Positions 22,928 through 56,197 of a stretch of DNA of 64,000 nt are shown here, one piece after another. Below the pieces are notes generated by a model that saw nothing but the letters and a program-made list of their open reading frames with translations, had not been told where the DNA came from and searched no databases. The position numbers and the translations under genes were made by a program. How positions within the stretch are numbered: the stretch's first letter is position 1; each line of letters opens with the position of its first letter. Origin of the DNA: a virus; the IMG/VR virus record IMGVR_UViG_3300045988_169460. One strand, given 5' to 3'.

Positions 22928-23135
22928 CAAATCTAGGGTGAAGTAAAATCCCTCTCAAAACGGTGAAAGCCTAACAGGTCAATACCGTGCCGAACTCTGT
23001 GAAAACAGCGGTGTAGAGACTTATAATGTATCGGCTATGTTTAAACATAAATCAATCGAATACATTTAATGGGGGATAGGAGCAAGCTCCTAAAGGTATA
23101 GTCCGACACTCTTGGCAACAGGAGAAAACAGAATG
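22928..23135 (+). mobile_element. small group-I-like intron 1 in polA
   Basis: Splicing 22927 to 23136 gives AKTVGFA-VDYGGSK (motif B K..NFG..YG). The core-like element AAGGUAUAGUCCGAC is present. U precedes the 5' splice site and the 3' terminal nucleotide is G. Confidence 0.6.
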
Positions 23136-25628: not shown

Positions 25629-26161
25629 TAAAAAGCATGGCGAGAAAAGGAACAACAAAGTACAAAAGTAATAAACAAGAAAAAGATGTAGCAAAAGTAT
25701 TAGGTGGAAAAACAGTAATGGCTAGCGGCTCTTTATGGCAAGCTAAGGGTGATGTAAGAACATCAAGATACTTAGTTGAGTGTAAGACTACTGATAAAGA
25801 TTTTTATAAGCTGGAACAAAAGATTTTAGCTAAAATTGCAAAAGAAGCTATAAAGGATGGACTAAGAAGCCCTTTATTAGTTTTTGATTGCAAGAATGAG
25901 AGATTTGTAGTCTTTAGAATAAAGGACTGTTCGTTAAAAGCCTCTTTAATCTTTAAATTATTTAAAGTAAAGATTATTGATACTTTAGTAAAAGGTAGAA
26001 GTATTTCTTTATCTTATAAAGAAGATTTAAAGAGTTTAAATAAAAATGAGAATGCTATAGGATTTAGTGTTCATAACTATAGATTAGTTCCTGAAACTTG
26101 GTTTTTAGTTTCAGAAGAAGTATTCTTAAAAAATGAAAGAGTATTATACGAGGTTATGTAA
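25625..26161 (+). CDS. PD-(D/E)xK nuclease, Holliday-junction-resolvase-like
   Basis: E...SGS...GDV...VECK pattern. Paralogous core to 28270-28800. Confidence 0.45.
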   Translation: MIKSMARKGTTKYKSNKQEKDVAKVLGGKTVMASGSLWQAKGDVRTSRYLVECKTTDKDFYKLEQKILAKIAKEAIKDGLRSPLLVFDCKNERFVVFRIKDCSLKASLIFKLFKVKIIDTLVKGRSISLSYKEDLKSLNKNENAIGFSVHNYRLVPETWFLVSEEVFLKNERVLYEVM

Positions 26162-27027
26162 TGAAGCGGTTAAAAGTAAGAGGTTCAGCTACTAGCCTGT
26201 TTTCTATTATGAAGGGGTCAAATTGCCCTTTAACAACAGCAATAGACTCTTATTTATTAACTGAAAAAGATGATGAAGGAAGAAAACATGGCTTTAATAG
26301 TCCTAGTGGGATAAAAGATTGTGTAAGGTCTCTTTATTATGTTAGAAAGTTTTATGACTGCACAAATGTAATAAAACCAAGAACAAAACGAGTATTTCAT
26401 AATGGTAAAGATGTTCATACTAGGATACAAAATTGTTTAATAAAATCTGGTTTATTATTACAAGAAGAGCCACCAGTATTTAATGCAGAACTACAAATAT
26501 TAGGGAATGCGGATGGATTGGCTTTAATCAATGGACATTTAGGTGTGTTAGAGATAAAGTCAATTAATCATTGTGAATATGTAGGATTAATAGAACCTAA
26601 GCCAGAACATATAAAACAAGCTTCAATTTATATGTATTGTTTTGAAACGATAAGGCAAGCAATGCAGAGTGAGGACTTTTGTGGTGAAGAACTTGCTAAT
26701 AAATATTACTTATCTTTAGATAAATCTTTAAAAGTAAAAGAGCGAAAAAGCAGAAAACAAGGCTTTTTAAAAATGTTAAATCTTATAGAAGACTACAAAA
26801 CCACTCCAATAGATAGCATTGATTTTTTGTATGAAAATAAAAATACACAAGAGATTAAAGAATTTATTGTTTATTGGGATGAGAGTATAATGCAAGAGAT
26901 AAAAAGTAAATATACTTTTTTGAATGAATGTATAGCAAAAAACAAAATACCTGATAGACCAGAGGGCAGTACAAAAAGTGGTAGTTGTAAAAATTGTAAA
27001 TATAAAGGAGTGTGTTATAGTGAATAA
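26161..27027 (+). CDS. Cas4/RecB-like PD-(D/E)xK exonuclease with a Cys cluster
   Basis: GNADGL...LEIKS, an N-terminal Cys, and C-terminal CKNCKYKGVC. Confidence 0.6.
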   Translation: MKRLKVRGSATSLFSIMKGSNCPLTTAIDSYLLTEKDDEGRKHGFNSPSGIKDCVRSLYYVRKFYDCTNVIKPRTKRVFHNGKDVHTRIQNCLIKSGLLLQEEPPVFNAELQILGNADGLALINGHLGVLEIKSINHCEYVGLIEPKPEHIKQASIYMYCFETIRQAMQSEDFCGEELANKYYLSLDKSLKVKERKSRKQGFLKMLNLIEDYKTTPIDSIDFLYENKNTQEIKEFIVYWDESIMQEIKSKYTFLNECIAKNKIPDRPEGSTKSGSCKNCKYKGVCYSE

Positions 27028-27807: not shown

Positions 27808-28273
27808 CAAGATTGAAAGTCAACTTTCACAAGAAGGTGTAACCCCTTTCTCCAATGAGAATATTGAAAGAGACTATTTAAAATTGCCAAGATATTTAGA
27901 TGAGTTACCTGCCGCTGAAATAGGAAGGTATCTCCATGCTACAGTACAGCAAAGGGTATATGTAAGAACGCTTATATCTCAAACAAGAGCGTATTTAAGG
28001 GAAGCACAGAGTCAGTTAAATATGGAAAAAGCTTTAATTTATAAAAGTTTTCCAGTAAAAATGAGTCTTACAGAAAAAGAATTAAAACTTGCAGAATATC
28101 CTTCCGCTAAAGAGGCAATGGAAAGGGTGATATATTTGCAAGAAAGACTTGATTATTTAAAAGATGTATTAGATAGCTTAGAAGATTTAAAATTTAATAT
28201 TAGTAGAGAGTTGTCTAGACGTGGAGTAGACTTTACAGATGCCAACAGAAGTGCTAGGGTTGGTGTAGAGTGA
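27791..28273 (+). CDS. hypothetical protein
   Basis: ORF track. Confidence 0.45.
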   Translation: MVTLIDKIESQLSQEGVTPFSNENIERDYLKLPRYLDELPAAEIGRYLHATVQQRVYVRTLISQTRAYLREAQSQLNMEKALIYKSFPVKMSLTEKELKLAEYPSAKEAMERVIYLQERLDYLKDVLDSLEDLKFNISRELSRRGVDFTDANRSARVGVE

Positions 28274-28800
28274 AGCAAGTAGATGTTCTTAAAGAACGGT
28301 TAGAACTTTTAAAAAGATATGAACCTGATTCGAAAGAAATAGTAGAGTTAGAAAATCGGATTAAATTAAGCAAAAAAGCTAAATCCAGTAGGAGAAAAGG
28401 GGCATCTTATGAATCAAAGGTAAGGAAGCTTTTGGGCGAAAGATTTCCTGATTTAGATTTTTCAAGAGTTCCTTCCAGTGGTGGATTTCAAAAATCCTCA
28501 GCTAATACTTTGTTAAGAGGAGACTTAGTTAATCTAAATGAAGATTATGATTTCAAATTACATTTAGAACTAAAAAATCAAAATAGATGGCAAGTTAATA
28601 CATGGTTTGAGCAAGCTGAAAGTGATTGTATTGAAGGTAAATTGCCTATAGTCATTATGCATAGAACGCAGAAAAATGAAAATGGCAAGCGAATAGCAGA
28701 AGCAGATGATTTTGTATTTTTACGTTTAAAAGATTTTTTAGATATTCTAGATGATGGAAAAATAATCAAAAAATGTCTTGACAAAAAGACAAAAATGTGA
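28270..28800 (+). CDS. PD-(D/E)xK nuclease-like protein
   Basis: GASYESKVRKLL...SGG...GDLV...LELKNQ pattern. Confidence 0.4.
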   Translation: MKQVDVLKERLELLKRYEPDSKEIVELENRIKLSKKAKSSRRKGASYESKVRKLLGERFPDLDFSRVPSSGGFQKSSANTLLRGDLVNLNEDYDFKLHLELKNQNRWQVNTWFEQAESDCIEGKLPIVIMHRTQKNENGKRIAEADDFVFLRLKDFLDILDDGKIIKKCLDKKTKM

Positions 28801-28867: not shown

Positions 28868-29152
28868 ATGGAAAAAACAGCTTTATTTAAAGTTTCTTCA
28901 ACAAGTAATGCAAAAAGTGTAGCAGGCTCAATCAGCCACACATTGAAAGGTGACGGAGATACGGCACCAAAAGATGTAGTATTGCAAGCAATCGGAGCTA
29001 GTGCCATTAATCAAACATGTAAAGCTATTGCTATTTCAAGAGGGCATTTAGCTGTGGCAGGATACGATGTAGTTACTAGAATTGGATTTGACGTTGTTGA
29101 AATTGATGGTGAAGAACGTACAATTTTGAAATTCTTCGTATCATTGAGATAA
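28868..29152 (+). CDS. spoVS: SpoVS-like protein
   Basis: KVSSTSNAKSVAGSI...LQAIGASAINQTCKAIAISRG...IDGEERTILKF closely matches the stage V sporulation protein S family. Confidence 0.8.
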   Translation: MEKTALFKVSSTSNAKSVAGSISHTLKGDGDTAPKDVVLQAIGASAINQTCKAIAISRGHLAVAGYDVVTRIGFDVVEIDGEERTILKFFVSLR

Positions 29153-29176: not shown

Positions 29177-29204
29177 AGCCCACCATTTAGGTGGGCTTTT
29201 ATTT
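29177..29204 (+). terminator. intrinsic terminator
   Basis: AGCCCACC-attta-GGTGGGCT followed by a T-run. Confidence 0.8.
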
Positions 29205-29218: not shown

Positions 29219-29602
29219 ATGAACCAAGAACTCACATTAGCAGTTAGCAGTAGTTTTGAAGCCGCTCATCATTTAGTAAATCCAACAGCATTTAATGAGA
29301 AATGCCTTAAACTACATGGACATTCTTATAAGTATACTATCTTTTTAAAAGGAGAAGTACAAGATGGTGGTATGGTAGAAGATTTTGGAGCTATAAAGAG
29401 GTATATTATAAATGAAATAACAAAGCTCTATGACCATTCAGATTTAAACAGATTTTTTTATAATCCTACCGCAGAAATGTTAGTTTTAGATATGGCATGG
29501 AGAGTAGAAGCCTTAATAGAGGATAATAGTTTAAAAGTTAAACTGACCAAAATAGAATTAGCCGAAACGGATAATAATAGGGTAATATGGGAGTCACAGT
29601 AA
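29219..29602 (+). CDS. queD: 6-carboxy-5,6,7,8-tetrahydropterin synthase
   Basis: FEAAHHL...CLKLHGHSYKY motif and about 125 aa length. Confidence 0.8.
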   Translation: MNQELTLAVSSSFEAAHHLVNPTAFNEKCLKLHGHSYKYTIFLKGEVQDGGMVEDFGAIKRYIINEITKLYDHSDLNRFFYNPTAEMLVLDMAWRVEALIEDNSLKVKLTKIELAETDNNRVIWESQ

Positions 29603-30259
29603 ATGTATATTACAGAGATTTTTAGTAGTATTCAAGGTGAGGGGAAGTATACAGGCTATCCTACTACCTTTGTTAGATTATTTGGTTGCAATTTATTTGA
29701 GATGTCTCCTAGCTATGCTTGTAAGTATTGTGATGAGAAACATTCAATGACAGGCAAACGAATAAAGATGCATTTAGGATTGGTAATGGATAAGATAGGG
29801 GCATTAGGAAATAAATATGTTTGTATCACAGGTGGAGAACCTTTAATGCAGGAAGAAACTATGCCTTTAGTTTATGAATTATTGTATAATGATTATATTG
29901 TTACAGTAGAAACAAATGGGACAATTCCTATAGAGCATTGTGAATATGTAAGAAGTTATTCATATTGTATGGATGTTAAATTACCTAGTAGCAGAACAGT
30001 ATTAGCACCAGATTTAAATTGTTATAAGAATTTAGGAGAGCTAAAAGTAAATGATGAAGTTAAGTTTGTTATTTCTAATATCCATGATTATGAAGAAGCA
30101 AAACGGATTTTAAAGAAATATAAAACTAAAGCAAGCCTTATTTTTTCTCCTGTAAATTGTGATTTAGAATTAGCAAGAGAAATAATGGGCTGGTTAATGA
30201 AAGATAAATTAAAAGCTAAATTAGGATTACAAATACACAAATTATTAGAAATTAAATAG
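29603..30259 (+). CDS. queE: 7-carboxy-7-deazaguanine synthase (radical SAM)
   Basis: EIFSSIQGEG, Cys motif GCNL-x14-CKYCD, GGEPL. Confidence 0.8.
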   Translation: MYITEIFSSIQGEGKYTGYPTTFVRLFGCNLFEMSPSYACKYCDEKHSMTGKRIKMHLGLVMDKIGALGNKYVCITGGEPLMQEETMPLVYELLYNDYIVTVETNGTIPIEHCEYVRSYSYCMDVKLPSSRTVLAPDLNCYKNLGELKVNDEVKFVISNIHDYEEAKRILKKYKTKASLIFSPVNCDLELAREIMGWLMKDKLKAKLGLQIHKLLEIK

Positions 30260-30269
30260 TAAAAATCTA

Positions 30270-30298
30270 TTGACAAATATGGATTTTTATGGTATAAT
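30270..30298 (+). promoter_or_regulatory. sigma-A-type promoter (TTGACA-17-TGgTATAAT)
   Basis: Consensus boxes. Confidence 0.65.
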
Positions 30299-30309
30299 AG
30301 GAGTATAAT

Positions 30310-30921
30310 ATGAAGATAGAAAATGTTAGAATATATGGTTTGCCAGAGAGCTTAATAGCCTCTGGCTATCCCATGTTATCTACAGAATTAAATGAAAAGG
30401 AATTTTTAAAGGAAGTAGAAGCGACAGAAAGAATAATTAAAAATAAATCTGGTAGTAATAAACATATAGAAAGAGGTATTAGATTAGGCAATTCTCCTTT
30501 AGGTAGCGGACATAATTGTGCTTTAAAGGGAATTACAGTACAATTTGATTTAACTTTTCCTCAGTATACATGGCAACAGTTACAAAGATATCACTATATT
30601 GATTTTATAAGTTCAATGAGCAAAATGCATCGTATTACAATGCTTGATTTAGATAAACATTGTCCTTTAGTGGATAATGAATTATTAAAAATTTCACAAA
30701 GATATGTAAATGCTTATAAAAAAGGTGAGATTGGCATAGATGCTTGTTTATCTAATATTCCTATGGGATTACAGATGACAGCACGAATGACTACAAATTA
30801 TTTACAATTATTATCTATTTATCATCAAAGAAATACTCATCGTTCAGATGAATGGAAAGAGTTTTGTTCTTGGGTAAAAACACTGCCTATGTTTAAAGAG
30901 TTGTGTTTAAAAGGAGAATAA
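30310..30921 (+). CDS. divergent ThyX-fold-like protein (catalytic motifs not conserved)
   Basis: By-eye alignment to ThyX: GHNCALKGITVQFDLTFPQYTWQQLQRYHYIDFISSMSKMH versus HETPFEH..F.F....P.FV.RQ..RHR..S.NE.S.RY. Also a C-terminal NYLQLLSIYHQR...W segment. Confidence 0.3.
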   Translation: MKIENVRIYGLPESLIASGYPMLSTELNEKEFLKEVEATERIIKNKSGSNKHIERGIRLGNSPLGSGHNCALKGITVQFDLTFPQYTWQQLQRYHYIDFISSMSKMHRITMLDLDKHCPLVDNELLKISQRYVNAYKKGEIGIDACLSNIPMGLQMTARMTTNYLQLLSIYHQRNTHRSDEWKEFCSWVKTLPMFKELCLKGE

Positions 30922-30925
30922 ATGT

Positions 30926-31345
30926 ATGGATTTAAACTCTGTTAATATAACAGCTACACAAGTAGCTAAAAATTATTTTTCAGCTTATGTTGAAAATGGC
31001 TTTATTTATTCTTATAGTGTATATGGTGAAAGACAACAAGTTGGTGTTACAAACGATGCTTATACTGCTTTACAGAAGACAGCGCAAGAAGCTTTAGATA
31101 AAGCTGAAAAGTATTATCAACGATTAGTGGAGTTAGGAGATATAGTACCTCCTAAAACATCAGAAGAAACTATTGCAGAATTGATGTCTGTAGTTAGTGA
31201 ATTACGTAATGAGATAAGAGAAATGAAGACAGTTCAACATAAGGGGGATTCAAATGAATCTATTAAGTATACTGAAAGCTCTGGGGATAAAAATTTCCCC
31301 ACAAATAGAGGAAGCTATAGCAAAGGCACAGCAACTGGCAAATAA
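30926..31345 (+). CDS. hypothetical protein
   Basis: ORF track. The 3' end overlaps the next ORF by 92 nt. Confidence 0.4.
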   Translation: MDLNSVNITATQVAKNYFSAYVENGFIYSYSVYGERQQVGVTNDAYTALQKTAQEALDKAEKYYQRLVELGDIVPPKTSEETIAELMSVVSELRNEIREMKTVQHKGDSNESIKYTESSGDKNFPTNRGSYSKGTATGK

Positions 31346-31604
31346 CTATGGCAATTCTAAAGAGGGCTTTATAAAAGCAGTTAATGAAAATGGTGGAACA
31401 GAATCTTTAACAAAAGCCTTAGCAACATTAGATAATCCAAATGTTGCTAGAGTTTTAACAGCGTTAGGGCACCCGCCAGAGTCTATAAAACAAGCAGTTA
31501 ATAGTCTTGGAGCAATAGCTCCTACGCCACAACAAACTCCTAATAATCAAAATATTTCTAATGAGATTAGGTCTTTTGAAGAAAGGCTTAAAAGATTAAA
31601 GTAG
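31254..31604 (+). CDS. hypothetical protein
   Basis: ATG after AAGGGGGA. Confidence 0.4.
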   Translation: MNLLSILKALGIKISPQIEEAIAKAQQLANNYGNSKEGFIKAVNENGGTESLTKALATLDNPNVARVLTALGHPPESIKQAVNSLGAIAPTPQQTPNNQNISNEIRSFEERLKRLK

Positions 31605-31641
31605 TAATACTTTAGTTATGTATTTTAAGGAGTGATTTTAA

Positions 31642-32139
31642 GTGGATGAAAAAATAAATTGGGGCTTTATCATTCTTATCTTCTTGTTCTTTATGATTTT
31701 TGGAGGATGGGGTAATGGTGGTCTGTTTGGTGGCAGAGGTGGAGAATGCGCTGGTTGTGGTGTAGTTTCTAACTGTCAAGTAGAAAAACAGCAAATCATT
31801 GATACAGCTAGAACTCAATACATGATTGAAAACACTGCAAAACAAACCCAAGAACAGGCAATGGCTTTAGCTAATGCTCTTGGAACTAAAATTGATTTCT
31901 ATGAATATCAAAATCTGCGTGACCAACTGGCACAAGAAAGAACTAAAAATGTGGTTCTGGAAAATCGTGTCTATAGTGATGCTAAATTTAATGCACTGGA
32001 AAGACAGAACGAAGCTATGTTTGGCGTATTAAAATCTGAAATTGCAGACTTGTCTTGCAATGTTCCGAAACGTCCTCCATACTATGCACAAGGTTTTGTA
32101 GCTTGTGGTTCTCCGATTCCCAATGGATGTTGCAACTAA
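31642..32139 (+). CDS. membrane-anchored Gly/Cys-rich protein
   Basis: GTG after TTAAGGAGTGATT. N-terminal TM, GGWGNGGLFGGRGGECAGCG, C-terminal GCCN. Locally atypical codon use (CTG, CGT). Confidence 0.5.
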   Translation: MDEKINWGFIILIFLFFMIFGGWGNGGLFGGRGGECAGCGVVSNCQVEKQQIIDTARTQYMIENTAKQTQEQAMALANALGTKIDFYEYQNLRDQLAQERTKNVVLENRVYSDAKFNALERQNEAMFGVLKSEIADLSCNVPKRPPYYAQGFVACGSPIPNGCCN

Positions 32140-32169
32140 TCTTTTGAAGTTCCGCTTATTTGCGTGATT

Positions 32170-32201
32170 GAGGGGTAGGCGGTATGCCTACCTCTCTTTT
32201 T
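32170..32201 (+). terminator. intrinsic terminator
   Basis: GAGGGGTAGGC-ggtat-GCCTACCTCTC followed by a T-run. Confidence 0.8.
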
Positions 32202-32221
32202 ATATTAAGGAGTGATTATTA

Positions 32222-32602
32222 ATGAATTGTAATTGTACAAATATTTTAGCCTCTACTTCTATTACATCCGAAGCTAATGATATTGATATCGTGGTTCCAA
32301 GTAGAACTATTTATAATGGTCAATGTGAGAAGTTATTAATACAACAGGCAATTCCTGTAAGTACAAATGGAAATGCAGTTCCTGTAAAATTAACTATTGG
32401 TGATGCTTCTGTCTTATTATTAGACCGTTGTGGAAACGCTGTTTTTTCTGACCAATTAAAATCAAGAAAAATCTATGATATTAGATTTCATACAACAGCT
32501 TTAACAGCTACTATTCTGTGTTCTATTCCAAACTGTACTAGTGGAGTAAATACTGTATTTAATCCTGCAACACCTCCTTCTGAGCCTGTTCCAAGTAATT
32601 AA
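32222..32602 (+). CDS. hypothetical Cys-containing protein
   Basis: ATG after TTAAGGAGTGATT, the same leader as 31642. Confidence 0.5.
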   Translation: MNCNCTNILASTSITSEANDIDIVVPSRTIYNGQCEKLLIQQAIPVSTNGNAVPVKLTIGDASVLLLDRCGNAVFSDQLKSRKIYDIRFHTTALTATILCSIPNCTSGVNTVFNPATPPSEPVPSN

Positions 32603-32620
32603 TAGACAGGAGGATTAGCT

Positions 32621-32791
32621 ATGAAACTAGATTTAGTGTCCTTAATGTTAGGTTTTGGTGTTGGTTATCTAGCATTAACAGAATCAGGTAGAAAACAGTT
32701 AATAAAAGTAAGCAATCAAGGTGGGGAATTAGTAAATAAGCTTACAGATAAGTATATAGGCGAGCCTATCAGTAAAGCATTAGGGGAATAG
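32621..32791 (+). CDS. small membrane-associated protein (56 aa)
   Basis: ATG after AGGAGGA. Below the track cutoff. Confidence 0.4.
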   Translation: MKLDLVSLMLGFGVGYLALTESGRKQLIKVSNQGGELVNKLTDKYIGEPISKALGE

Positions 32792-32794
32792 AAA

Positions 32795-33250
32795 GTGTCA
32801 CACATGAAGAAGTCGTTAATGCACCTGACGAAGAAGCAAAACTGGATTGATGATTTAGTTGAAATATTAAAATGTAGATTAAAATATCCTACAACAGATT
32901 TAAAAGAAGTTTATGAAGATATAGAAGAAGACATTTATTTATGTGTTAATGGCGAGCATTTTGATGAGGACTTAGCGAAACAAGCCGTTAGTGAGATGAT
33001 AAATGCAGGTGGTACAACTGGCGAGAAATGGAGCAAGGAACGTACTGATGAGGCTGCTCGGATTGTCGGCATCACTGAAAACCTCTGGGATTTTTACTAT
33101 GTTATTAATATGTACTACAGCGATTACAACACAGTTATCGGTGAAGATATTACAATGGCGGCGAAACTCTCTAAAGCGTTCATTGAGGATGTAGATGTTC
33201 CAGAAGGAAAGGCTTATAGATACTACAAATATGTAGTTAAAGATGAATAA
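32795..33250 (+). CDS. hypothetical protein
   Basis: ORF track; start at GTG 32795 or ATG 32804. Confidence 0.45.
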   Translation: MSHMKKSLMHLTKKQNWIDDLVEILKCRLKYPTTDLKEVYEDIEEDIYLCVNGEHFDEDLAKQAVSEMINAGGTTGEKWSKERTDEAARIVGITENLWDFYYVINMYYSDYNTVIGEDITMAAKLSKAFIEDVDVPEGKAYRYYKYVVKDE

Positions 33251-33461
33251 TAACGGAAATAATAATAGTCTTCTGGATACTTTAGGGGCTTTAGGTGATT
33301 TATTAGGCATATTAAACTACATAGAAAATTTACAACAAACTAAAAATGATGTTATAATGAAAGAATTAAGAAAGCAAGATAGTGTATATTTTAAGCAAAT
33401 ATTAGAAAATCAAGCAAGAATTGAAGAAAAGTTAGATAAGTTACTTGACAAGCAAGAGTAG
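33243..33461 (+). CDS. small coiled-coil protein
   Basis: ORF track. Confidence 0.45.
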   Translation: MNNNGNNNSLLDTLGALGDLLGILNYIENLQQTKNDVIMKELRKQDSVYFKQILENQARIEEKLDKLLDKQE

Positions 33462-33473
33462 TTATGATATAAT
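33445..33473 (+). promoter_or_regulatory. sigma-A-type promoter overlapping the end of the upstream gene
   Basis: TTGACA-17-TGaTATAAT. Confidence 0.6.
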
Positions 33474-33503
33474 AGAGGTGTAGTCAAGGCTACGCCTCTA
33501 TTT
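33474..33503 (+). terminator. terminator hairpin abutting the -10 box
   Basis: AGAGGTGTAG-tcaagg-CTACGCCTCT-ATTTT. The predicted start of the adjacent promoter falls inside the 5' arm. Confidence 0.55.
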
Positions 33504-33523
33504 TAATTATAAGGAAGGTTAAA

Positions 33524-33781
33524 ATGCAGAAATTTAAGTTGAGAAATAAAGACCTAGATACTTTAATGGGGATTTATAGAAACAGTTCAATGATTTTTAT
33601 AAAAATAAATCAGTTAACACTACATCAATTTTTCTACGCACATATATCACAAGAAGCAATGGAAAGAAATGAGCCTATTCCTGTTAGAGAAGCTAATATT
33701 ATGACTAGTCGAGTATTGTTTTGGATGCTAGCAAGGGATTTTCTATATTTTTTTAAAAATATTGATGAGGAATGGGAATGA
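33524..33781 (+). CDS. WE-tail protein (ends DEEWE)
   Basis: ORF track. Confidence 0.55.
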   Translation: MQKFKLRNKDLDTLMGIYRNSSMIFIKINQLTLHQFFYAHISQEAMERNEPIPVREANIMTSRVLFWMLARDFLYFFKNIDEEWE

Positions 33782-34029
33782 GAAAAAAATATAGTTTTAG
33801 AAGTTATGTAACAATAAATTTTTTACAAAATATATTTCCTTTAACTGCTAATGAATGTAGAAAAGTATTAAAATGTGAATATTTTGAAGCAGAAGAAATA
33901 AGGATTAATTTACATAATTGTTTATTTATATATTTAGAGATAGATAATAAGGTAAGAAGATTTGTGGTTACAGAAAAAGAATTAAAATATTTTAGCAAAG
34001 AATTTAAAGGATTTTATGGATGGGAGTAA
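33778..34029 (+). CDS. WE-tail protein (ends YGWE)
   Basis: ATGA overlap with the upstream stop. Confidence 0.55.
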   Translation: MRKKYSFRSYVTINFLQNIFPLTANECRKVLKCEYFEAEEIRINLHNCLFIYLEIDNKVRRFVVTEKELKYFSKEFKGFYGWE

Positions 34030-34034
34030 GAAAC

Positions 34035-34523
34035 ATGAAAATTATAGCAGTAGATTTTGATGGAACATTATGTGAAAATAAGTACCCAGAAATAGGTGAG
34101 CCTGTTATTGGGTATTATCGAGGGTGGAAAGGTGATAAATACTTTTCTTGTCGCTTTCATTTTATTAAGCTTTTAATAGCTTTGCAAGAAATGGGGAATA
34201 AAATAATTCTTTTTACTTGCAGAGGTGGGGAACAATTAGAAGAAGCTGTAAGTTGGTGCGATAATCTATTTGGATTAAAGTTTGATGCAGTTAATAATGA
34301 TGTAGAAGAAACTTTACAAAGGTATGCTCCAACTCTTGAATTAAGAAATCAATTATCTGCTACAAGAAAGATTTATGCAGATGTTTATATAGATGACAGA
34401 AATTTAAATGCAGATGAATATTTAGAGAAGAATTTAATTTTATTAGATGCAAAATCTTTATATGATATGGGGATAACAGAAAATGCTACAGAATTTTTAA
34501 TTGAAAGGGTGTTGAATAAATGA
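34035..34523 (+). CDS. HAD-superfamily phosphatase / nucleotidase-like
   Basis: MKIIAVDFDGTL (DxDGT motif I). ATG 8 nt after GGGAG. Confidence 0.6.
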   Translation: MKIIAVDFDGTLCENKYPEIGEPVIGYYRGWKGDKYFSCRFHFIKLLIALQEMGNKIILFTCRGGEQLEEAVSWCDNLFGLKFDAVNNDVEETLQRYAPTLELRNQLSATRKIYADVYIDDRNLNADEYLEKNLILLDAKSLYDMGITENATEFLIERVLNK

Positions 34524-34882
34524 GAAAAATAGTTGTGGCTGGTACAAGAGAATTTAATGATTATAGATTATTATGTGATGTTTTAGATTTTCATATAAAT
34601 GGTGAACAAGTAATTATAATTAGTGGTAATGCTAAAGGGGCAGATTCAATGGGAGAGGTTTATGCTTCTTCTCATAATTTGAAATGTGTAAAATTTCCCC
34701 CTGATTATGAGACTTATCCTTCTAAAGTAGCCCCATTAAAAAGAAACGAGGAAATGGCAAAGGAAGCTACAGAAGGAATTATATTTTGGGACGGTGTTTC
34801 AAGAGGTACTTGGAATATGATTCAGCAATTAAGAAAATATAAGAAAAAAGTAACTATTATTAACTATAGGAAGTTAGTGTAA
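34520..34882 (+). CDS. SLOG-family protein (DUF2493-like)
   Basis: MRKIVVAGTREFND...IIISGNAKGADSMGE...PLKRNEEM pattern. Confidence 0.65.
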   Translation: MRKIVVAGTREFNDYRLLCDVLDFHINGEQVIIISGNAKGADSMGEVYASSHNLKCVKFPPDYETYPSKVAPLKRNEEMAKEATEGIIFWDGVSRGTWNMIQQLRKYKKKVTIINYRKLV

Positions 34883-34883
34883 A

Positions 34884-35492
34884 ATGGATAATTGCGAATT
34901 TTATTTATTATATAGCGGCGGGTATGATAGCACTGTGTTGCTTTATGATTTTATTGATAAATTACCTAATAAATTGACAGTAATACATATTGTTACTCAG
35001 TATAATCAAGAAGAAACAAAAGCGGCAAGAGAGATAATTGAATTAGTAAAAGACAAAATTCTTAACTATATTGAATTAGAAATGCCTGTTTATAAAACAG
35101 AAATAGAATATATTCCATACAGAAATGCTCAATTTATATTAAGAGCACTTTCAACCTTGACAATTAAAGCAGGATGTGCTATAATATTATTAGGGTTGAT
35201 AAGAGTAGAAGAACCTTTTCCTGATTGCACACAGTATTGGTTAAAAACAATGGAGAAATTAGTTCAAGTAGAAAATCCTCATATTGGATTAGAAGCACCT
35301 TATATTAACAATACTAAAGATGAAATTTATACTGTAGGATGTAAGTTTAAGGTTCCTTTAAGAAATACTTTTAGTTGTAACTTTCCTGTAGATGGTGCAG
35401 AATGCGGGGAATGTGGAAACTGTAAATGGAAAGCAAAACATAAATATCCTAATTATTTTAGAGTTATAGAAGGAGGTAGAAACAATGTTTAA
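34884..35492 (+). CDS. queC: 7-cyano-7-deazaguanine synthase
   Basis: PP-loop LLYSGGYDST and C-terminal zinc motif CGECGNCKWK. Confidence 0.8.
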   Translation: MDNCEFYLLYSGGYDSTVLLYDFIDKLPNKLTVIHIVTQYNQEETKAAREIIELVKDKILNYIELEMPVYKTEIEYIPYRNAQFILRALSTLTIKAGCAIILLGLIRVEEPFPDCTQYWLKTMEKLVQVENPHIGLEAPYINNTKDEIYTVGCKFKVPLRNTFSCNFPVDGAECGECGNCKWKAKHKYPNYFRVIEGGRNNV

Positions 35493-35685
35493 AATTATTA
35501 ATGGTAAGGGAACAGGTTCTAACACACAAAAGAGTGCAGTGAATACCTCCCCACAAGTGAAGATTACTAGCCCAGCAACAAGAAGAAGTTTATCTTGGCT
35601 TAGAAGGGTGCAAACAAGTTTAACTCCAAGAACAAAAAAAGCTTTAGATTGGTTAGAAGCCAATAGTGTTAGATTACCTAAATAA
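35485..35685 (+). CDS. small basic protein
   Basis: ATG after GGAGG; K/R/S/T-rich. Confidence 0.4.
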   Translation: MFKIINGKGTGSNTQKSAVNTSPQVKITSPATRRSLSWLRRVQTSLTPRTKKALDWLEANSVRLPK

Positions 35686-35700
35686 TAGGAGAATTAGTTA

Positions 35701-37542
35701 ATGAAAAATGGATATACGTTATTTCTTTCTGGTGTTGAACCAGAAGAAAATTTCTATACTGCAATAGATGTTACCTCTAGTCTATTGCAGTCTTATTGGT
35801 ATATAAAGCGGCGTGGAAAAGATAAAATTGTAGAGCGTTTTGATAAAGTTAAGAAAAATTCTTTGTTAATTGATAGTGGAGCACATACTTTTCTCACCTT
35901 AGCAGAATATCAAGATAAGACAGTAGATTATTGGGAAGAGTATATAAAAGGATATATAGCTTTTGTAAGAAAACATAGAGAAAAAGTATTTGCTTGTGTT
36001 GAAATGGATATAGATACTTTAGTAGGAACAGAACAAGTAAATAAATGGAGAGAAGAATACTTTCATTCTTTAGAGGAAGAGGGCATTTCTGTTATTTATG
36101 TTTATCATGCAGAAAAGGGATTGGAAGAGTGGGAAAGAATGTGTAAAACATATTCCTATGTTGGGTTCTCTTACAATGAATTTGAAGATGCTATTTTAAT
36201 TGATAAATTATTTGAAATAGCAATGGAATATAAAACTAAAGTACATGGTTTTGCAGTATCGGGATATAGAGAATTATTAAAACATGAGTATTATACAAGT
36301 GACAGTACAAGTTGGATTACAGGAGCTCAATATGGAGAATTAAACTATTTTGAAGGTGGGAAATTAAAACGGCTCACAAAAGAAAAATGGAAAAATGAAT
36401 ATTATGCAAAAATACTTGATTTATGTACAAGTAAAAAGTTATTAGAAGCAGAAGCTCCTTATGAATTAATGCGTATTAGTGCTTTAAGTTATAAGAAATT
36501 AGAAGAGCATGTAAATGATATATTTAGAGGCAAAAGATATTGGATTGGAAGAAAGGAAGTGTCTAAAGTAGCGAGTAAGGGAAATTTACCGCCAGTAGAG
36601 TGGTTTTCAACTGATATGGAAGATTGGCAAGAATGGGCACAGAAATTAAATATAGACACGAATCTTCCTGATGAAGCAGGTAAATCATTAATTGTTGCTT
36701 GTTACAATTTTGTGACAGATAATCCTATTATAAATGAGTATCCTCTCGAAGAATTAATTGACTTATGTGGACTTTTTGGTGATAAGAAGTCGAATACTCT
36801 TACTAAGTGCCGAAAAGCCCTTAAAGAGCACTTTACAGCTCTCTTAAAGGGTAGTATGGATTTATCCACTTTGACAGAAGAAGAAGTAGAAGAGAAAAAA
36901 AATGTAGTTCCAAAAGAGCGGGAAGAGTATGTTCAAGAAAAAGAGTATGTAGAATGTACTGTTAGCAAGGAAGAGTGTCAAGGTTTATTAAAAGGGTTAT
37001 TAACTTCTGGTGTGACAGATGAAGCAGAGAAAGCTTTAATTGAACAGGGAATAGAGCCTATTTATGATGAGAATGGAAACATTAAAGCAGGTATTAAACG
37101 AATAAAGAAAAGAAAATCTTTAAGTTCAAGTGTGATGCCAGAGTTAAGTTGCAATATTTGTACTAAAGCACGGAGATGTCCTTTATATGAAGAAGGAATG
37201 CTTTGTGCTTATAATAAAATGTTTAAGCAATTTGATACAAGAAATCCCGAAGATGTAGTAGATGCTATGAGCAGTATTGCAAATTTAAGTTTAGAAAGAT
37301 TATCAAGGGCTGTGACATTTGAAAAATTAGATGGTGGCTTAAATACTAAAGAGGTAACAGAGACAATGGCAGAAGCATGGAAATATCTTGAAAAGATACA
37401 AGAAATTCAAACAAAGAGTGATAAAGTTATAGCAGAGCGTAGAGTTGTAACTTCTTCTAACGGCGATGTAGAAGTAAGAGAAAGTGTAACAGGAAATCCG
37501 CAAGGTTTATTGTCTGAGATTCTAAAAACAAAAAAAAGTTGA
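35701..37542 (+). CDS. dpdA: DpdA-like (TGT-superfamily) DNA guanine transglycosylase fused to a ~350-aa C-terminal region of unknown function
   Basis: N-terminal LLIDSGAHTF and VHGFAVSG resemble the TGT/DpdA catalytic regions. Adjacent to queC. The C-terminal part has a Cys cluster, SCNICTKARRCPLYEEGMLC. Confidence 0.45.
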   Translation: MKNGYTLFLSGVEPEENFYTAIDVTSSLLQSYWYIKRRGKDKIVERFDKVKKNSLLIDSGAHTFLTLAEYQDKTVDYWEEYIKGYIAFVRKHREKVFACVEMDIDTLVGTEQVNKWREEYFHSLEEEGISVIYVYHAEKGLEEWERMCKTYSYVGFSYNEFEDAILIDKLFEIAMEYKTKVHGFAVSGYRELLKHEYYTSDSTSWITGAQYGELNYFEGGKLKRLTKEKWKNEYYAKILDLCTSKKLLEAEAPYELMRISALSYKKLEEHVNDIFRGKRYWIGRKEVSKVASKGNLPPVEWFSTDMEDWQEWAQKLNIDTNLPDEAGKSLIVACYNFVTDNPIINEYPLEELIDLCGLFGDKKSNTLTKCRKALKEHFTALLKGSMDLSTLTEEEVEEKKNVVPKEREEYVQEKEYVECTVSKEECQGLLKGLLTSGVTDEAEKALIEQGIEPIYDENGNIKAGIKRIKKRKSLSSSVMPELSCNICTKARRCPLYEEGMLCAYNKMFKQFDTRNPEDVVDAMSSIANLSLERLSRAVTFEKLDGGLNTKEVTETMAEAWKYLEKIQEIQTKSDKVIAERRVVTSSNGDVEVRESVTGNPQGLLSEILKTKKS

Positions 37543-37567
37543 CAATAATCCCTTAATATGGTATAAT
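37539..37567 (+). promoter_or_regulatory. sigma-A-type promoter (TTGACA-17-TGgTATAAT); the -35 box overlaps the upstream stop codon
   Basis: Consensus boxes. Confidence 0.65.
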
Positions 37568-37592
37568 AAAACTATATTAAGGGATTTTTTTT
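37547..37592 (+). terminator. terminator hairpin whose loop contains the -10 box
   Basis: AATCCCTTAATAT (in the promoter spacer), loop with TATAAT, ATATTAAGGGATT, then T8. Confidence 0.65.
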
Positions 37593-37607: not shown

Positions 37608-37925
37608 ATGAAGAGAATTAGTTATGGAAAAAGATTTAGATTATTAGAAGAAGGGTATATTGGATACAAGTGGTTTTCTAAAGGGTCAATATTTATGGCT
37701 ACAGGATTAATTAGTTTTATGGGTAATAATATATTCCGTGTTTATAATCCTGATGGCAGTTTAAGACAAGATTTGCATACTGGTAATGGACATGTAAATT
37801 TTTTTTTAAGTTTATCTCCTATATCAAAAGATGAGCTTTTAGCATCAGAAGAATGTTATTGGTTTTTAAATGATATAGAATTAAGAACTTATTTTAAAGA
37901 AATTGTCTATGAGGAATGGGAGTAA
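37608..37925 (+). CDS. WE-tail protein, body family B (ends YEEWE)
   Basis: Paralogue of 37931-38239. Confidence 0.6.
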   Translation: MKRISYGKRFRLLEEGYIGYKWFSKGSIFMATGLISFMGNNIFRVYNPDGSLRQDLHTGNGHVNFFLSLSPISKDELLASEECYWFLNDIELRTYFKEIVYEEWE

Positions 37926-37930
37926 GAGTT

Positions 37931-38239
37931 ATGAAAAAATACAAAGAAACTTTTATAGTAAAAAGTCAGTTTTCTGATGGATTAAGGACTTTTCCTAAAG
38001 GAACAATATTTGAAAGCACAGGAGTTTTTTTTGGCATTGAAACACTTTTTTGTGTTTACTATCCCGATGGAGTTCCTTATGCTTGTTTACATGATGGCAA
38101 TAGTGCTCAAATAATGCTTTTAAATAGAACACCTTTAACATTAGCTGAAATTCGAGCACAAGGTGATTGTCATTGGTGGGTTAGAAATTCTGATATTGAT
38201 GAATATTTTATACCAAAATCATCTTTAGAATGGGAGTGA
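37931..38239 (+). CDS. WE-tail protein, body family B (ends SLEWE)
   Basis: ATG 8 nt after GGGAG. Confidence 0.6.
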   Translation: MKKYKETFIVKSQFSDGLRTFPKGTIFESTGVFFGIETLFCVYYPDGVPYACLHDGNSAQIMLLNRTPLTLAEIRAQGDCHWWVRNSDIDEYFIPKSSLEWE

Positions 38240-38244
38240 AAAAA

Positions 38245-38508
38245 TTGAACATAATACTAGGAGAATATTTTATAGTTACTAGACCTTTTAGATATGAGGG
38301 CAATGTATTTCATAAAGATGATTTATTACGTGTAGCTAAAATATATAGTTGGTCTAAAGTTTTAGTTTCCAATAGAGCTTGGATATCAACTAAAGTAGGA
38401 CACACAGACCCAAAAAATCAATATAGTTTTGGTGAAGAAACAAATTGGAATATTGATACAGAATATTTATTTAAAAATTGTGTTCCTTATAGGTCAGAAT
38501 GGGAGTAG
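38245..38508 (+). CDS. WE-tail protein, body family A (ends RSEWE)
   Basis: TTG 8 nt after GGGAG. Confidence 0.55.
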   Translation: MNIILGEYFIVTRPFRYEGNVFHKDDLLRVAKIYSWSKVLVSNRAWISTKVGHTDPKNQYSFGEETNWNIDTEYLFKNCVPYRSEWE

Positions 38509-38513
38509 TGGAG

Positions 38514-38870
38514 ATGAAATATAAAGCAGGAGATGTAGTAAAAATTGACAAAACAAGATTTGTTATAGAAAGAGTTACTAAAAAAGGCTATATTTTATTT
38601 CCTCATATAGGATTTTTCGTAAAGGATTGCCAAATAAATAAAAAAATTAAAGTGAAGAAATCTTATGAATTAGGAGATAAATTCAAATGTCTATGTGACT
38701 TTAGTTCAGGGACTTCTGTGGCGAAAAAAGACAAACATTATATTTGTACACAGAAATTTTCAGATGGCACATATATGCTTACAAGAATAAAAAATAAAGA
38801 AGAGAAATTAAGAGTGAATACAAATCAGATTCATGCTTATTTTAGACATTATTTTGGAGGTTGGGAATAG
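38514..38870 (+). CDS. WE-tail protein (ends GGWE)
   Basis: ATG after GTGGAG. Confidence 0.55.
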   Translation: MKYKAGDVVKIDKTRFVIERVTKKGYILFPHIGFFVKDCQINKKIKVKKSYELGDKFKCLCDFSSGTSVAKKDKHYICTQKFSDGTYMLTRIKNKEEKLRVNTNQIHAYFRHYFGGWE

Positions 38871-39073
38871 TGCCAATAGGAACAAGAGTAAGAATAAGAG
38901 AAGATTTAAAAACTACAGAAACTTATGGTGGCGTAAGAGTTATAGAAGATATGCTAGTTTATGCAGGTAAAGAAACAACAATAATTTGGCATGAAGCTAA
39001 TGTATATCATATACTTTTAGATGATGGTTTTTACTATTGGACAGATGAAATGTTTATTAGTGAATGGGAATAA
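38870..39073 (+). CDS. WE-tail protein, body family C (ends ISEWE)
   Basis: GTG overlaps the upstream TAG, with GGAGG 9 nt upstream. Paralogue of 42037 and 46893. Confidence 0.55.
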   Translation: MPIGTRVRIREDLKTTETYGGVRVIEDMLVYAGKETTIIWHEANVYHILLDDGFYYWTDEMFISEWE

Positions 39074-39142: not shown

Positions 39143-39934
39143 ATGTGTATTATAATTTATAAACCAGCAAAAGCTACACTAAAAAAAGAAACATTAAAAA
39201 CAGCATTTGAAAACAATCCTGATGGTGCAGGATTTATGTACCAATCTGATTTACTTGAAGCTCCTAAAATGCAAAAGGGATTTTTTGATTTTGATAAATT
39301 TTATGAGGCATATGAGAAAGTGGCTGAAAGTGATAAAGGTTATAATATTGCTGTTCATTTTAGAATTGCAACGCATGGAGCTGTTAATAGTTTAAACTGT
39401 CATCCTTTTATTGTTAAAGAAAGTGTTGAAAAAACTATTAGCGAAAAAGGACAGTATAGTTCTTTATTTATGCAAAATGGTGTTATTAAAAGTATTTCTG
39501 TAAATAAGAAAGATAAATATAGCGATACTTGTAATTTCACCTATAAAATTATGTCTAAAATTAAAACATTAACAAGCATGAAGATAAAAGATATTCTGGA
39601 AACTATTGAATCTCCAAGTAGATTTTGTTTAATGCAAGAAGGGCGAAAACCTTTATTGATTGGTAGTTTCAAAAAAGATGGTGGAGTAAGCTTTAGTAAT
39701 GAATCCTATAAAGAAATAAAAATTGTTACTTCTTATCCTACTACTTTTGAAACTTATTTACTTGCATTCGAAGATTGCGATGCAAAAGATATTAGAGATA
39801 TTGAAACAGAACTTAAAGATGACCAATGTGGAATTATTGATGCTTATAATGTAGGAGATGTGACTTTCTTTGAAACGAACTATCTCCCTATTAGAGAAAA
39901 GATTGCAGGTAAAGAATTTCGATGTTATCGTTGA
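39143..39934 (+). CDS. Ntn-type (class II) glutamine amidotransferase-like protein, copy 1
   Basis: Met-Cys N-terminus (MCIIIYKP), NPDGAGFM, HFRIATHG...NCHPF. Confidence 0.65.
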   Translation: MCIIIYKPAKATLKKETLKTAFENNPDGAGFMYQSDLLEAPKMQKGFFDFDKFYEAYEKVAESDKGYNIAVHFRIATHGAVNSLNCHPFIVKESVEKTISEKGQYSSLFMQNGVIKSISVNKKDKYSDTCNFTYKIMSKIKTLTSMKIKDILETIESPSRFCLMQEGRKPLLIGSFKKDGGVSFSNESYKEIKIVTSYPTTFETYLLAFEDCDAKDIRDIETELKDDQCGIIDAYNVGDVTFFETNYLPIREKIAGKEFRCYR

Positions 39935-41971: not shown

Positions 41972-42000
41972 TTGACAAAATCCCTTACATGTGATATAAT
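41972..42000 (+). promoter_or_regulatory. sigma-A-type promoter (TTGACA-17-TGaTATAAT)
   Basis: Consensus boxes. Confidence 0.65.
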
Positions 42001-43528: not shown

Positions 43529-44137
43529 ATGTGTATTGTAATTTACCAACCTAAAGGAAAGCAAGTGCAAAAAGCAATTTTACAGAAAGCATTTGAAAAC
43601 AATCCTGATGGTGCAGGATTTATGGTTCAAAAAGATAAAGAAGCACCATATATGATGAAGGGATTTTTTGATTTTGATAAATTTTATAAATCATATCTTC
43701 CATTTTCTAAAGGGGATTATAACGTAGCAATTCATTTTAGAATTGCTACACATGGAACAGTAAACAAAGATAACTGTCATCCATTTAAAATTTCTTCTGA
43801 TATTGCTGATACTGTTTTATTTAATGGCAGGGCAGATTCGCTGATAATGCATAATGGCATTATTAGTAGCATTATGACACCAAGAAATCTGCCATATAGT
43901 GATACAATGAATTTTATTGCAAAGATTTTATGTTGGATGAAAGACCTTAAATCTAAAGATTTGACAGAAGTATTAAAAAACCTCGAAAGTTATTCAAAGT
44001 TTTGTATAATGAGAAAAGGATTTGACCCCATTCTAGCGGGGCTTTTTATTGAAGATAGAGGTATTTTTTATAGCAATTCAACTTATAAATATAGTTATGT
44101 TAATACTTTTCAAAATTGTAAAACTTATTTAAATTAA
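43529..44137 (+). CDS. Ntn-type (class II) glutamine amidotransferase-like protein, copy 2
   Basis: MCIVIYQP, NPDGAGFM, HFRIATHG...NCHPF. Lies 37 nt after the amidoligase. Confidence 0.65.
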   Translation: MCIVIYQPKGKQVQKAILQKAFENNPDGAGFMVQKDKEAPYMMKGFFDFDKFYKSYLPFSKGDYNVAIHFRIATHGTVNKDNCHPFKISSDIADTVLFNGRADSLIMHNGIISSIMTPRNLPYSDTMNFIAKILCWMKDLKSKDLTEVLKNLESYSKFCIMRKGFDPILAGLFIEDRGIFYSNSTYKYSYVNTFQNCKTYLN

Positions 44138-55990: not shown

Positions 55991-56197
55991 GTGATAGATA
56001 AATATTATCAATTAGACAACATGGCTATTTATGTAAAATCATTAGTAGTATATAATAGTATTAAGTATTATATATTAGATATATTTATTGATAATATTTA
56101 TACAAAACAATATAATATAAAAACTAATGATATATTATTGACAGAAGAACATATTGTTATTAATGAAGTAAAGTTTATTAGAAACTATTATCAATAA
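55991..56197 (+). CDS. hypothetical protein
   Basis: ORF track; an alternative ATG lies at 56021. Confidence 0.4.
   Translation: MIDKYYQLDNMAIYVKSLVVYNSIKYYILDIFIDNIYTKQYNIKTNDILLTEEHIVINEVKFIRNYYQ

Follow-up and report, generated by a model that had tools for sequence, protein, structure and literature searches.

The window analysed here is a 64,000-nucleotide stretch of the IMG/VR virus record IMGVR_UViG_3300045988_169460, a phage segment of about 30% GC in which nearly every gene up to about 56 kb lies on the plus strand. Between positions 29219 and 37542 it carries the genes of a putative 7-deazaguanine DNA-modification system, the last of which encodes a candidate DNA transglycosylase of the DpdA type. 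All features given below are on the plus strand unless stated otherwise. The genes queD (29219-29602), for a 6-carboxytetrahydropterin synthase of 127 amino acids (aa) with a CxxxHGH motif, and queE (29603-30259), for a radical-SAM 7-carboxy-7-deazaguanine synthase of 218 aa with a Cx10CxxC cluster motif, are neighbours, and 4.6 kb of unrelated genes separates queE from queC (34884-35492), which encodes a divergent 7-cyano-7-deazaguanine synthase of 202 aa. A small basic open reading frame (ORF; 35485-35685, 66 aa) stands between queC and dpdA (35701-37542). The product of dpdA, here called the long DpdA, has 613 aa in three parts: a transglycosylase domain resembling DpdA1, a middle domain of helices, and a C-terminal module with four cysteines (Cys4); queC lies 0.2 kb and queD/queE 5.4 kb upstream of its gene. 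An initial annotation made from the sequence alone had recognised this split que set, with queC apart from queD and queE, and had read the locus as a QueD/QueE/QueC and DpdA set with a Cys-rich extension. Its ORFs, the small basic one included, all lie where it had placed them, and homology together with synteny to Bacillus phage BCD7 supports its core reading.

The three biosynthetic enzymes could be identified through Pfam, NCBIfam, diagnostic motifs and similarity to their BCD7 counterparts, as had been proposed, with matches far stronger than chance would give. QueD matches PF01242 (7e-21), TIGR03367 (4e-18) and phrog_2389 (2e-20), is 33% identical to BCD7 QueD, and shows the CxxxHGH signature as CLKLHGH, whereas a DpdL decarboxylase would have LxxxHRHxF (for both motif definitions see PMC10516641). 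QueE matches the Radical_SAM family (PF04055, 1e-10); its top five NCBIfam matches are all QueE models (among them TIGR04349, 4e-48, and TIGR03963, 3e-40), and its identity to the BCD7 enzyme is 48% (E=2e-62). QueC matches PF06508 (1e-22), the PADLOC QueC model (6e-24) and BCD7 QueC (E=9e-15). The canonical QueC motifs are the SGGxDS loop, the C(x)8CxxCxxC zinc motif, VPxRN, YPDC and YxQxHxxE (PMC13329287), and the window's protein keeps SGGYDS, IPYRN, FPDC and C164(x)8C173xxC176xxC179.

The N-terminal part of the long DpdA (residues 1-285; 35701-36555) has the DpdA1-like (beta/alpha) barrel domain. When the full-length protein was compared by tblastn with 50,697 phage records (2.3 Gb), a single full-length relative was found, in BCD7 (33% identity over 98%), and residues ~22-270 only were matched by the DpdAs of phages 9g, BRET, JenK1, Iggy, Bipper, BRock and others, with E-values of about 1e-6 for 9g, BRET and Iggy in this 2.3-Gb database. 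In BLASTP, residues 22-223 matched the validated 9g DpdA at E=1e-12, and the two proteins share DSGA and VHGF (the latter containing 9g H196) and pair DSTSW with DSSSW. The same domain matches the stand-alone 312-aa DpdA of the related phage contig L008 at E=5e-31 (residues 29-292), and residues 28-580 match phrog_887 ('queuine tRNA-ribosyltransferase') at 7e-54. The two stretches that had first drawn attention to the protein, LLIDSGAHTF (residues 54-63) and VHGFAVSG (residues 181-188), fall within conserved parts of it: in alignment A3, which sets the long and the split forms beside the DpdAs of 9g, Iggy, Bipper and phiFN37, L29, S31, Y34, D58-S59-G60-A61, D103, H136, Y153, H182-G183, D201 and G212 are invariant. 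H182 aligns with 9g H196, the hallmark of DpdA1. The 9g enzyme inserts preQ0 (7-cyano-7-deazaguanine) or G+ (archaeosine base) into DNA in Escherichia coli, and H196 is a residue absent from DpdA2 (PMC6884629). In the crystal structure of Salmonella DpdA, one Asp serves as general acid/base and another as nucleophile, and base recognition falls to a third Asp together with a His; DpdA and tRNA-guanine transglycosylase (TGT) share all three aspartates without exception (PMC10164549). Because three invariant aspartates occur in the same order in the long DpdA, and given its homology to the experimentally validated 9g and Iggy enzymes, we assign residues 1-285 to DpdA1; from residue order we infer that D58, D103, D201 and H182 would correspond to Salmonella D95, D130, D256 and H181. 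In the AlphaFold2 (AF2) model, the mean predicted local distance difference test score (pLDDT) is 79 for the whole protein and about 90 for the N-terminal barrel, and Foldseek with the full-length model returns generic TIM barrels at E>=3e-3.

Beyond the barrel, residues 299-383 (36595-36849) form a helical middle domain (AF2 pLDDT about 89) which is conserved only inside the long-DpdA family and, as a separate fragment, gave no Pfam or PHROG match. The C-terminal module (residues 480-610; 37138-37530) has the signature C484-x2-C487-x5-C493(P)-x8-C502, then R533, E541 and G545-G546 (alignment A2); the CxxC...C...C cluster that had been noticed near residue 490 is this Cys4 motif. A basic stretch precedes the cysteines, and in the model a helical hairpin (516-572) and a beta-hairpin (577-597) follow them; modelled alone, the module has a pLDDT of 80. 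The long-DpdA family keeps C484, C487, C493, C502, R533, E541 and G545 without variation. In a set of 183 complete modules, conservation is 99-100% for the four cysteines, in whose place His never occurs, 98% for the arginine, 100% for the glutamate and 95-97% for the glycine pair.

The module occurs in three settings, of which fusion to DpdA is the first. A HMMER search of representative sequences with the whole-protein profile (590 positions, N-domain columns included) gave 7,741 matches at E<=1e-3. Architectures were called with local hidden Markov models (HMMs) on 150 listed matches, and among these the DpdA domain and the module occur together in 110 of the 143 new representatives (408-1180 aa), corresponding to at least 110 fused clusters at 50% identity. 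The longest fused DpdAs carry inteins. Intein domains (PF14890/PF14528) were seen in the homologues P0027, P0029 and P0041 and in those of 878-1180 aa, e.g. P0095, P0102, P0106 and P0158; in related phages ThyX and PolA likewise contain inteins. The description 'fusion protein' is apt in that the fusion is real, but it is not idiosyncratic, since DpdA is joined to a defined recurrent module in a common architecture. Similarly, the protein is 'unusually long' against characterised DpdAs (about 310-320 aa), not within what is a large metagenome family.

In the second setting the two parts are split. In Bacteroides phage BS162P1 (genes 00087 and 00088) and in contigs of ~82-85 kb, including L008-L010, queC is directly followed by a 312-aa DpdA and then by an overlapping module gene of 226-251 aa, with queE nearby. 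These phages form a widespread clade with genomes of ~85 kb. The components are the same as in the window; the split form differs in having separate genes, in lacking the helical middle domain, and in that its stand-alone module protein has its own Cys-containing N-terminus of ~90 aa. That protein aligns with residues 483-611 of the long DpdA (E=3e-11 for the 240-aa protein of L008; E=2e-9 for BS162P1_00088). Stand-alone modules were found in 45 clusters, and one such protein, P0082, appears in the index of the sequence collection under 451 blocks.

The third setting lies apart from DpdA, in actinophages. Proteins of 447-497 aa belonging to phrog_6902 (4e-7) and phrog_16015 end in the module with identical Cys spacing; TIN2 gp001, labelled as a small terminase subunit (TerS), matches at E=2e-10. 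The putative TerS proteins of TIN2-4 (Tsukamurella) and of GTE7, GMA7 and Demosthenes (Gordonia) share the module, its Cys spacing and the R/E/GG signature, whereas their N-terminal ~270 residues are unrelated to DpdA and, where its neighbours were seen, the gene lies directly upstream of those for the large terminase subunit (TerL) and portal, not near que genes. The genomic neighbours of such module-bearing actinophage proteins were seen for TIN2 and Demosthenes only: in both, the gene is directly upstream of and overlaps that for TerL (TIN2 gp002; phrog_2, 4e-23), followed by portal. No dpdA was seen in these loci, and a scan of viral contigs with Demosthenes gp09 returned only actinophage homologues in the TerS position. 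Mycobacteriophages of the Bipper type were considered as carriers of both a DpdA and a module-bearing TerS and were rejected, as Bipper has a DpdA and no module. On these sequence comparisons the module is an independent, recurrent unit found in fused, split and TerS-associated forms. Its occurrence both fused to and split from DpdA argues that DpdA and the module act together. We found no description in the literature of a large group of DpdAs with such an obligate-looking partner module.

The closest isolate is BCD7 (gp021-gp028; DpdA YP_007005872), in which both the N- and the C-terminal parts of the long DpdA are conserved. Synteny with the window extends over the Cas4-like nuclease, gp036, a PDDEXK protein, SpoVS, QueD, QueE, QueC and DpdA. 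BCD7 differs in having FolE directly upstream of dpdA and a linker that is ~100 aa longer, giving 757 aa in total. Linkage of dpdA to QueD, QueE and QueC was found in all five relatives examined (BCD7 and the related phage contigs L002 and L016-L018; L015 and L008-L010 were further contigs used for comparison). Hutinet et al. 2019 (Supplementary Data 1) include BCD7 YP_007005872 as a DpdA with FolE, QueD, QueE and QueC, and group BCD7 with CAjan and Rosebush, which carry 2'-deoxy-preQ0 (dPreQ0). Because this homologue has already been catalogued as a DpdA, the system in the window is known in kind. Neither BCD7 nor the C-terminal extension is discussed in the main text of Hutinet et al. 2019 or in Cui et al. 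2023, and we found no measurement of BCD7 DNA modification in the literature.

Compared with characterised phage DpdA1 systems, namely Enterobacteria phage 9g, with 2'-deoxyarchaeosine (dG+), Escherichia phage CAjan and Mycobacterium phage Rosebush (both dPreQ0) and Pseudomonas phage Iggy (dPreQ0 at GA), the window has the same transglycosylase domain including the DpdA1-specific histidine, the same linkage to QueD, QueE and QueC, and the same expected outcome, namely post-replicative replacement of G by a 7-deazaguanine and resistance to restriction. The characterised DpdA1s are about 310-320 aa long and lack the C-terminal module, unlike the 613-aa protein, and the window's genes, unlike theirs, belong to three or more transcription units. 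Moreover, 9g has Gat-QueC where the window phage has a plain, divergent QueC and no folE. The bacterial Dpd system of Salmonella Montevideo, with DpdA and the ParB-like ATPase DpdB, also centres on a TGT-superfamily enzyme that exchanges guanine in DNA and has three invariant aspartates, and bacterial DpdA is inactive without DpdB, its DNA-handling partner (PMC10164549). The model of bacterial DpdA has no detectable match to the window's protein, and only the 9g DpdA touches that model (E=0.02). The accessory here would be a Cys4/helical module without an ATPase in place of a ParB-like ATPase, and the window's system would serve phage counter-defence where bacterial Dpd serves host restriction-modification.

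Taken together, we consider that the locus encodes a DpdA1-type system by which the phage modifies its DNA with 7-deazaguanine and in which the C-terminal module is an accessory, and we would place the probability of this reading at roughly 70%. The modified guanine would probably be swapped into the phage's own DNA to escape host restriction enzymes. In the proposed pathway, dihydroneopterin triphosphate would come from the host GTP cyclohydrolase I, as the window contains no phage folE, and QueD, QueE and QueC would convert it via 6-carboxytetrahydropterin (CPH4) and 7-carboxy-7-deazaguanine (CDG) to preQ0, or possibly only to 7-amido-7-deazaguanine (ADG), since QueC is divergent. The N-terminal TIM barrel would then exchange guanine in phage duplex DNA for the deazaguanine by the double displacement of TGT and DpdA, with D58 (of DSGA) as general acid/base, D201 (of DSTSW) as nucleophile, and D103 and a histidine reading the base. 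DNA modified in this way would resist host restriction.

The Cys4 module, for its part, may help DpdA to engage duplex DNA, in a role analogous to that of the ParB-like DpdB or of phage ParB-like genes. We suggest that it is a metal-dependent DNA-handling or oligomerisation accessory of the transglycosylase, because the proteins that carry it in the TerS position are expected to bind DNA and to oligomerise. A DNA-handling role is also suggested because bacterial DpdA needs DpdB and because ParB-like genes adjoin dpdA in Bipper and phiFN37. In Mycobacterium phage Bipper (L029, 202-6342) the ParB-like gp1, DpdA, QueD, QueE and FolE lie immediately upstream of the terminase gene, with no TerS annotated, and in Fusobacterium phage phiFN37 (L013, 3528-4813) the first part of dpdA is overlapped by a ParB-like gene. 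DpdA lineages seem to differ in the DNA-binding partners that they recruit. The four cysteines may bind either zinc, as Zn(Cys)4, or a [4Fe-4S] cluster, both being equally possible. The spacing C-x2-C-x5-C followed by CP is that of the [4Fe-4S] sites in Cas4/AddB nucleases and in the glycosylases EndoIII and MutY. The window's own Cas4-like nuclease ends in C-x2-C-x5-C.

Several results weigh against this assignment. First, the 613-aa protein contains no Pfam domain, and no match to Pfam TGT, to an NCBIfam model or to the PADLOC DpdA model relates it to either TGT or the bacterial DpdA. The PDB gave nothing with the single sequence or with two profiles (phmmer/hmmsearch), and the Foldseek top 50 for the model holds no TGT or DpdA. 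Alignment by hhalign with E. coli Tgt, alone or with 11 homologues, paired only TDSGGFQ with IDSGAHTF at 1.6-2.6% probability; this Tgt alignment was too shallow, as the homologue search yielded only sequences at least 83% identical. However, these HMMER tests also miss the validated DpdAs of 9g and Iggy, the 9g protein touching PADLOC DpdA only at E=0.02 in the region from His196 to the Asp, and the missing link is therefore better seen as a limit of tool sensitivity than as a refutation. The TGT relationship itself rests on published HHpred results for DpdA1. Thus, of the earlier proposal that the N-terminus resembles the TGT/DpdA catalytic core, the DpdA part stands through the match to 9g and the invariant residues, while direct similarity to TGT was not reproduced. 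Second, QueD, QueE and QueC all score below the curated NCBIfam equivalog cut-offs (64 bits against 150 for QueC). The YxQxHxxE motif of QueC is degenerate (VTQYNQEE), without the His and with the Tyr position shifted, and an alignment guided by BCD7 (one alignment) puts Val where E. coli has the essential Tyr. Third, the module matched nothing in Pfam, in a PDB profile search or in Foldseek against the PDB, where the best E was 0.017, to a PadR-like protein at 18 Å root-mean-square deviation; Foldseek against BFVD returned only uncharacterised phage proteins. None of these searches gave anything interpretable by which the module could be identified with a known family or fold. Finally, an accessory is no general requirement, since the 9g DpdA works in E. 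coli without the module.

Which base is made depends largely on QueC, and here the reading is less firm because QueC lacks the YxQxHxxE histidine and, in one alignment, the essential tyrosine. QueD, QueE, QueC and DpdA in the absence of QueF, ArcS, Gat-QueC and DpdC would predict dPreQ0 or a close derivative, with CAjan and Rosebush taken as analogues. Another end base is less likely: QueC might stop at ADG, CDG itself might be inserted, or the base might be tailored to 2'-deoxy-ADG (dADG), to dG+ or to a new base. The deviation of QueC from the canonical motif would fit such an outcome, as would the range of bases that phage DpdAs insert (CDG, preQ0 or preQ1, with dADG or dCDG in the DNA of some phages; PMC10516641). 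In addition, the relative L018 has two QueC paralogues, and the relatives L002 and L016 have DNA-modification genes between queE and queC. However, no homologue of QueF, ArcS, Gat-QueC, DpdC, DpdL, DpdM or DpdN was recognised among the proteins scanned. As for folE, tblastn with BCD7 FolE found nothing in the window, and among all six-frame ORFs the best match to an HMM made from four phage FolE sequences had an E of 0.21; neither search covers FolE2 (type IB). A folE hidden in the window was therefore rejected, in agreement with the initial annotation.

That annotation had also named several neighbouring genes as possible tailors of the base, a suggestion for which no support was found. The genes themselves were recovered with Pfam, NCBIfam and PHROG: a HAD phosphatase (start 34035; NF046079, 1e-22), a SLOG/YAcAr (DUF2493) protein (start 34520; PF10686, 5e-15), two Amidoligase_2 genes (42323-43492 and 53831-55285), each with N-terminal Zn-ribbon/LIM-like Cys repeats, and two GATase-like genes (39143-39934 and 43529-44137) with an N-terminal Cys (phrog_25883). 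Yet the HAD and SLOG genes are missing from the dpdA neighbourhoods of BCD7, L002 and L016-L018, and the amidoligase and GATase-like genes are likewise not linked to dpdA in relatives. The GATase-like proteins are unlike the Gat domain of 9g Gat-QueC (E=12 for 39143), and that at 43529 is encoded directly downstream of the amidoligase gene at 42323. A split Gat plus QueC leading to dG+ was rejected on the same grounds, QueC being a stand-alone protein. The ORF at 30310-30921, described as ThyX-fold-like, did not hold up as a true ThyX: it belongs to phrog_6721, its Pfam Thy1 match (E=0.0076) is below the curated cut-off, and it is dissimilar to the true ThyX of a relative (E=3.8). This weak ThyX-like gene occupies the slot between queE and queC, where L002 has a C5-methylase and an intein-containing ThyX (7349-8461) and L016 a Mom-like gene (7550-8164). 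Because relatives have such genes there, the slot is a hot spot for DNA-modification genes.

A second alternative concerns the module. As a TerS-type domain for oligomerisation and TerL docking, it could place a DpdA ring at the packaging motor, or make DpdA itself the TerS, with base exchange taking place during packaging. The homology of the module to the C-terminal ~130-170 residues of proteins encoded upstream of TerL in TIN2 and Demosthenes is what raises this idea. TerS oligomerisation cores consist of a helical hairpin and then a beta-hairpin, and the module's predicted long helical hairpin followed by a beta-hairpin has this layout. BCD7, moreover, lacks a recognisable TerS (none of the three genes that precede its TerL matches a TerS family), and the single copy of the module in its genome is in DpdA; in Bipper, the terminase gene comes right after dpdA and the que genes. 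We nevertheless consider it unlikely. The long dpdA lies among genes of replication and nucleotide metabolism, not beside TerL, from which it is about 60 kb away in BCD7, and the module gene of the split form sits after dpdA, not after a terminase gene. The actinophage TerS label is positional only, without Pfam or PDB support. No terminase gene lies near the long dpdA, and no solved TerS was found by sequence or by Foldseek, whose best viral 'TerS' match had an E of 0.08. It is also quite improbable, on our estimate, that the Cys4 and helical hairpin constitute an undescribed metal-binding (possibly [4Fe-4S]) domain by which both TerS proteins and base-exchange enzymes form rings on DNA or dock to the terminase. 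Were it true, guanine exchange would be tethered to the packaging motor, or DpdA would double as TerS, and the genome would be hypermodified while entering the capsid.

That the target is not phage DNA, the enzyme acting on tRNA or the genes raising the queuosine pool of the host, is very improbable: the database label 'queuine tRNA-ribosyltransferase' (phrog_887, and RefSeq for BCD7) speaks for it, but this label is inherited, the 9g DpdA fails to complement an E. coli tgt mutant yet modifies DNA (PMC6884629), the 613-aa protein matches no TGT model and is fused to a module common to DNA-packaging-position proteins, and the window has no tRNA genes and, among its proteins scanned, no queF or queA.

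DNA modification by DpdA with 7-deazaguanines is an established anti-restriction strategy of phages, and the DpdA1-type system proposed here is not new in itself. What has, to our knowledge, not been described is a large two-component variant of DpdA, in which the transglycosylase is fused to a Cys4 module (in at least 110 clusters at 50% identity) or encoded beside it (as a separate gene in the widespread clade of ~85-kb phages). A separable accessory domain offers an experimental handle on how phage DpdAs reach their sites in DNA, and the homology of the module to TerS-position proteins makes a link between DNA hypermodification and packaging testable. The module would also annotate an otherwise uncharacterised domain in two PHROG 'TerS' families.

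The que and dpdA genes are distributed over at least three transcription units. The window contains 20 perfect TTGACA-N17-TATAAT promoters, against 0.04 expected by chance, all with TG at -15/-14 and all co-oriented with the genes. On the plus strand they start at 1645, 1738, 5661, 11242, 12016, 13894, 23972, 28778, 30270, 33445, 35157, 37539, 39081, 39941, 41972, 42264, 45559 and 50483, and on the minus strand at 60828 and 63814; those at 39081 and 39941 are identical 29-mers. With such idealised promoters, the phage evidently depends on the host RNA polymerase with its primary sigma factor. The promoter at 28778 precedes the SpoVS-like gene and that at 30270 the ThyX-like gene. The one at 33445-33473 heads a unit that runs via the HAD and SLOG genes into queC, and another with a perfect extended -10 (TTGACA-17-TGcTATAAT; 35157-35185) lies within the coding sequence of queC, upstream of the small ORF and dpdA. 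This small ORF has a weak match in L002, to the correspondingly placed 70-aa gene (E=2e-4), and a gene of 60-72 aa occupies its position in L002, L015, L016 and L018. A terminator-like hairpin (29177-29197) lies between the SpoVS-like gene and queD, and no perfect promoter is found between it and queD; a search for a preQ1 riboswitch or other RNA at this hairpin gave nothing that reaches Rfam gathering thresholds, only noise at E<=1.

Just 3' of the dpdA stop codon lies a hairpin with a 16-bp stem followed by a T-run (37547-37586). A perfect promoter (37539-37567) is embedded in it and overlaps the stop codon. The stem contains the -10 box, and the element could both end transcription of the upstream gene and start that of the following one. 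Other promoters also sit in or abut long hairpins (33445-33502 and 41972-42000, as well as 37539-37586). Promoter-stem-loop cassettes are known from T4-type phages, and the hairpin-embedded promoters here resemble them. The motif GARTGGGARTRA occurs 14 times in the window, at 1974, 2383, 4002, 4294, 11751, 11997, 33770, 37914, 38228, 39062, 42244, 47121, 49770 and 51640. Many small ORFs end in EWE-stop, the codons TGG-GAG-TAA supplying a GGGAG Shine-Dalgarno sequence for the following gene, whose true start is then probably 7-9 nt downstream. For the HAD phosphatase, one such case, the start is probably 34035 (MKIIAVDFDGT) and not 34020. Directly 3' of dpdA (37608-39073) are five tandem small ORFs of 70-123 aa, of which at least the first two seem paralogous, with a common pattern like F..G..F..TG...Y.PDG.

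The SpoVS-like gene (28868-29152; phrog_35646, 2e-21) is the upstream neighbour of the que/dpdA genes, and such a gene was seen just upstream of them in each relative examined, in fused and split forms alike: PF04232 (SpoVS) genes occupy the equivalent position in L002, L008-L010 and L016-L018, and BCD7 gp031 is annotated as a 'sporulation protein'. The que genes are further flanked by a PDDEXK_15 nuclease (28270-28800; PF24608, 7e-20); this nuclease and the Cas4-like one (26161-27027; homologue of BCD7 gp037) are both kept in BCD7. An ORF for a family-A DNA polymerase (21263-22936; 557 aa) has a 3'-5' exonuclease domain and covers only positions 58-217 of the 381-position polymerase profile, so that the polymerase looks split or interrupted; in the relative L016, PolA contains an intein/LAGLIDADG element. 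At ~56 kb both GC skew and gene orientation reverse, and the minus-strand block from ~56000 to 64000 holds an RtcB RNA ligase (62568-63779; PF01139, 3e-59). RtcB or RNA-ligase genes are also found near dpdA in the relatives L002, L016 and L018.

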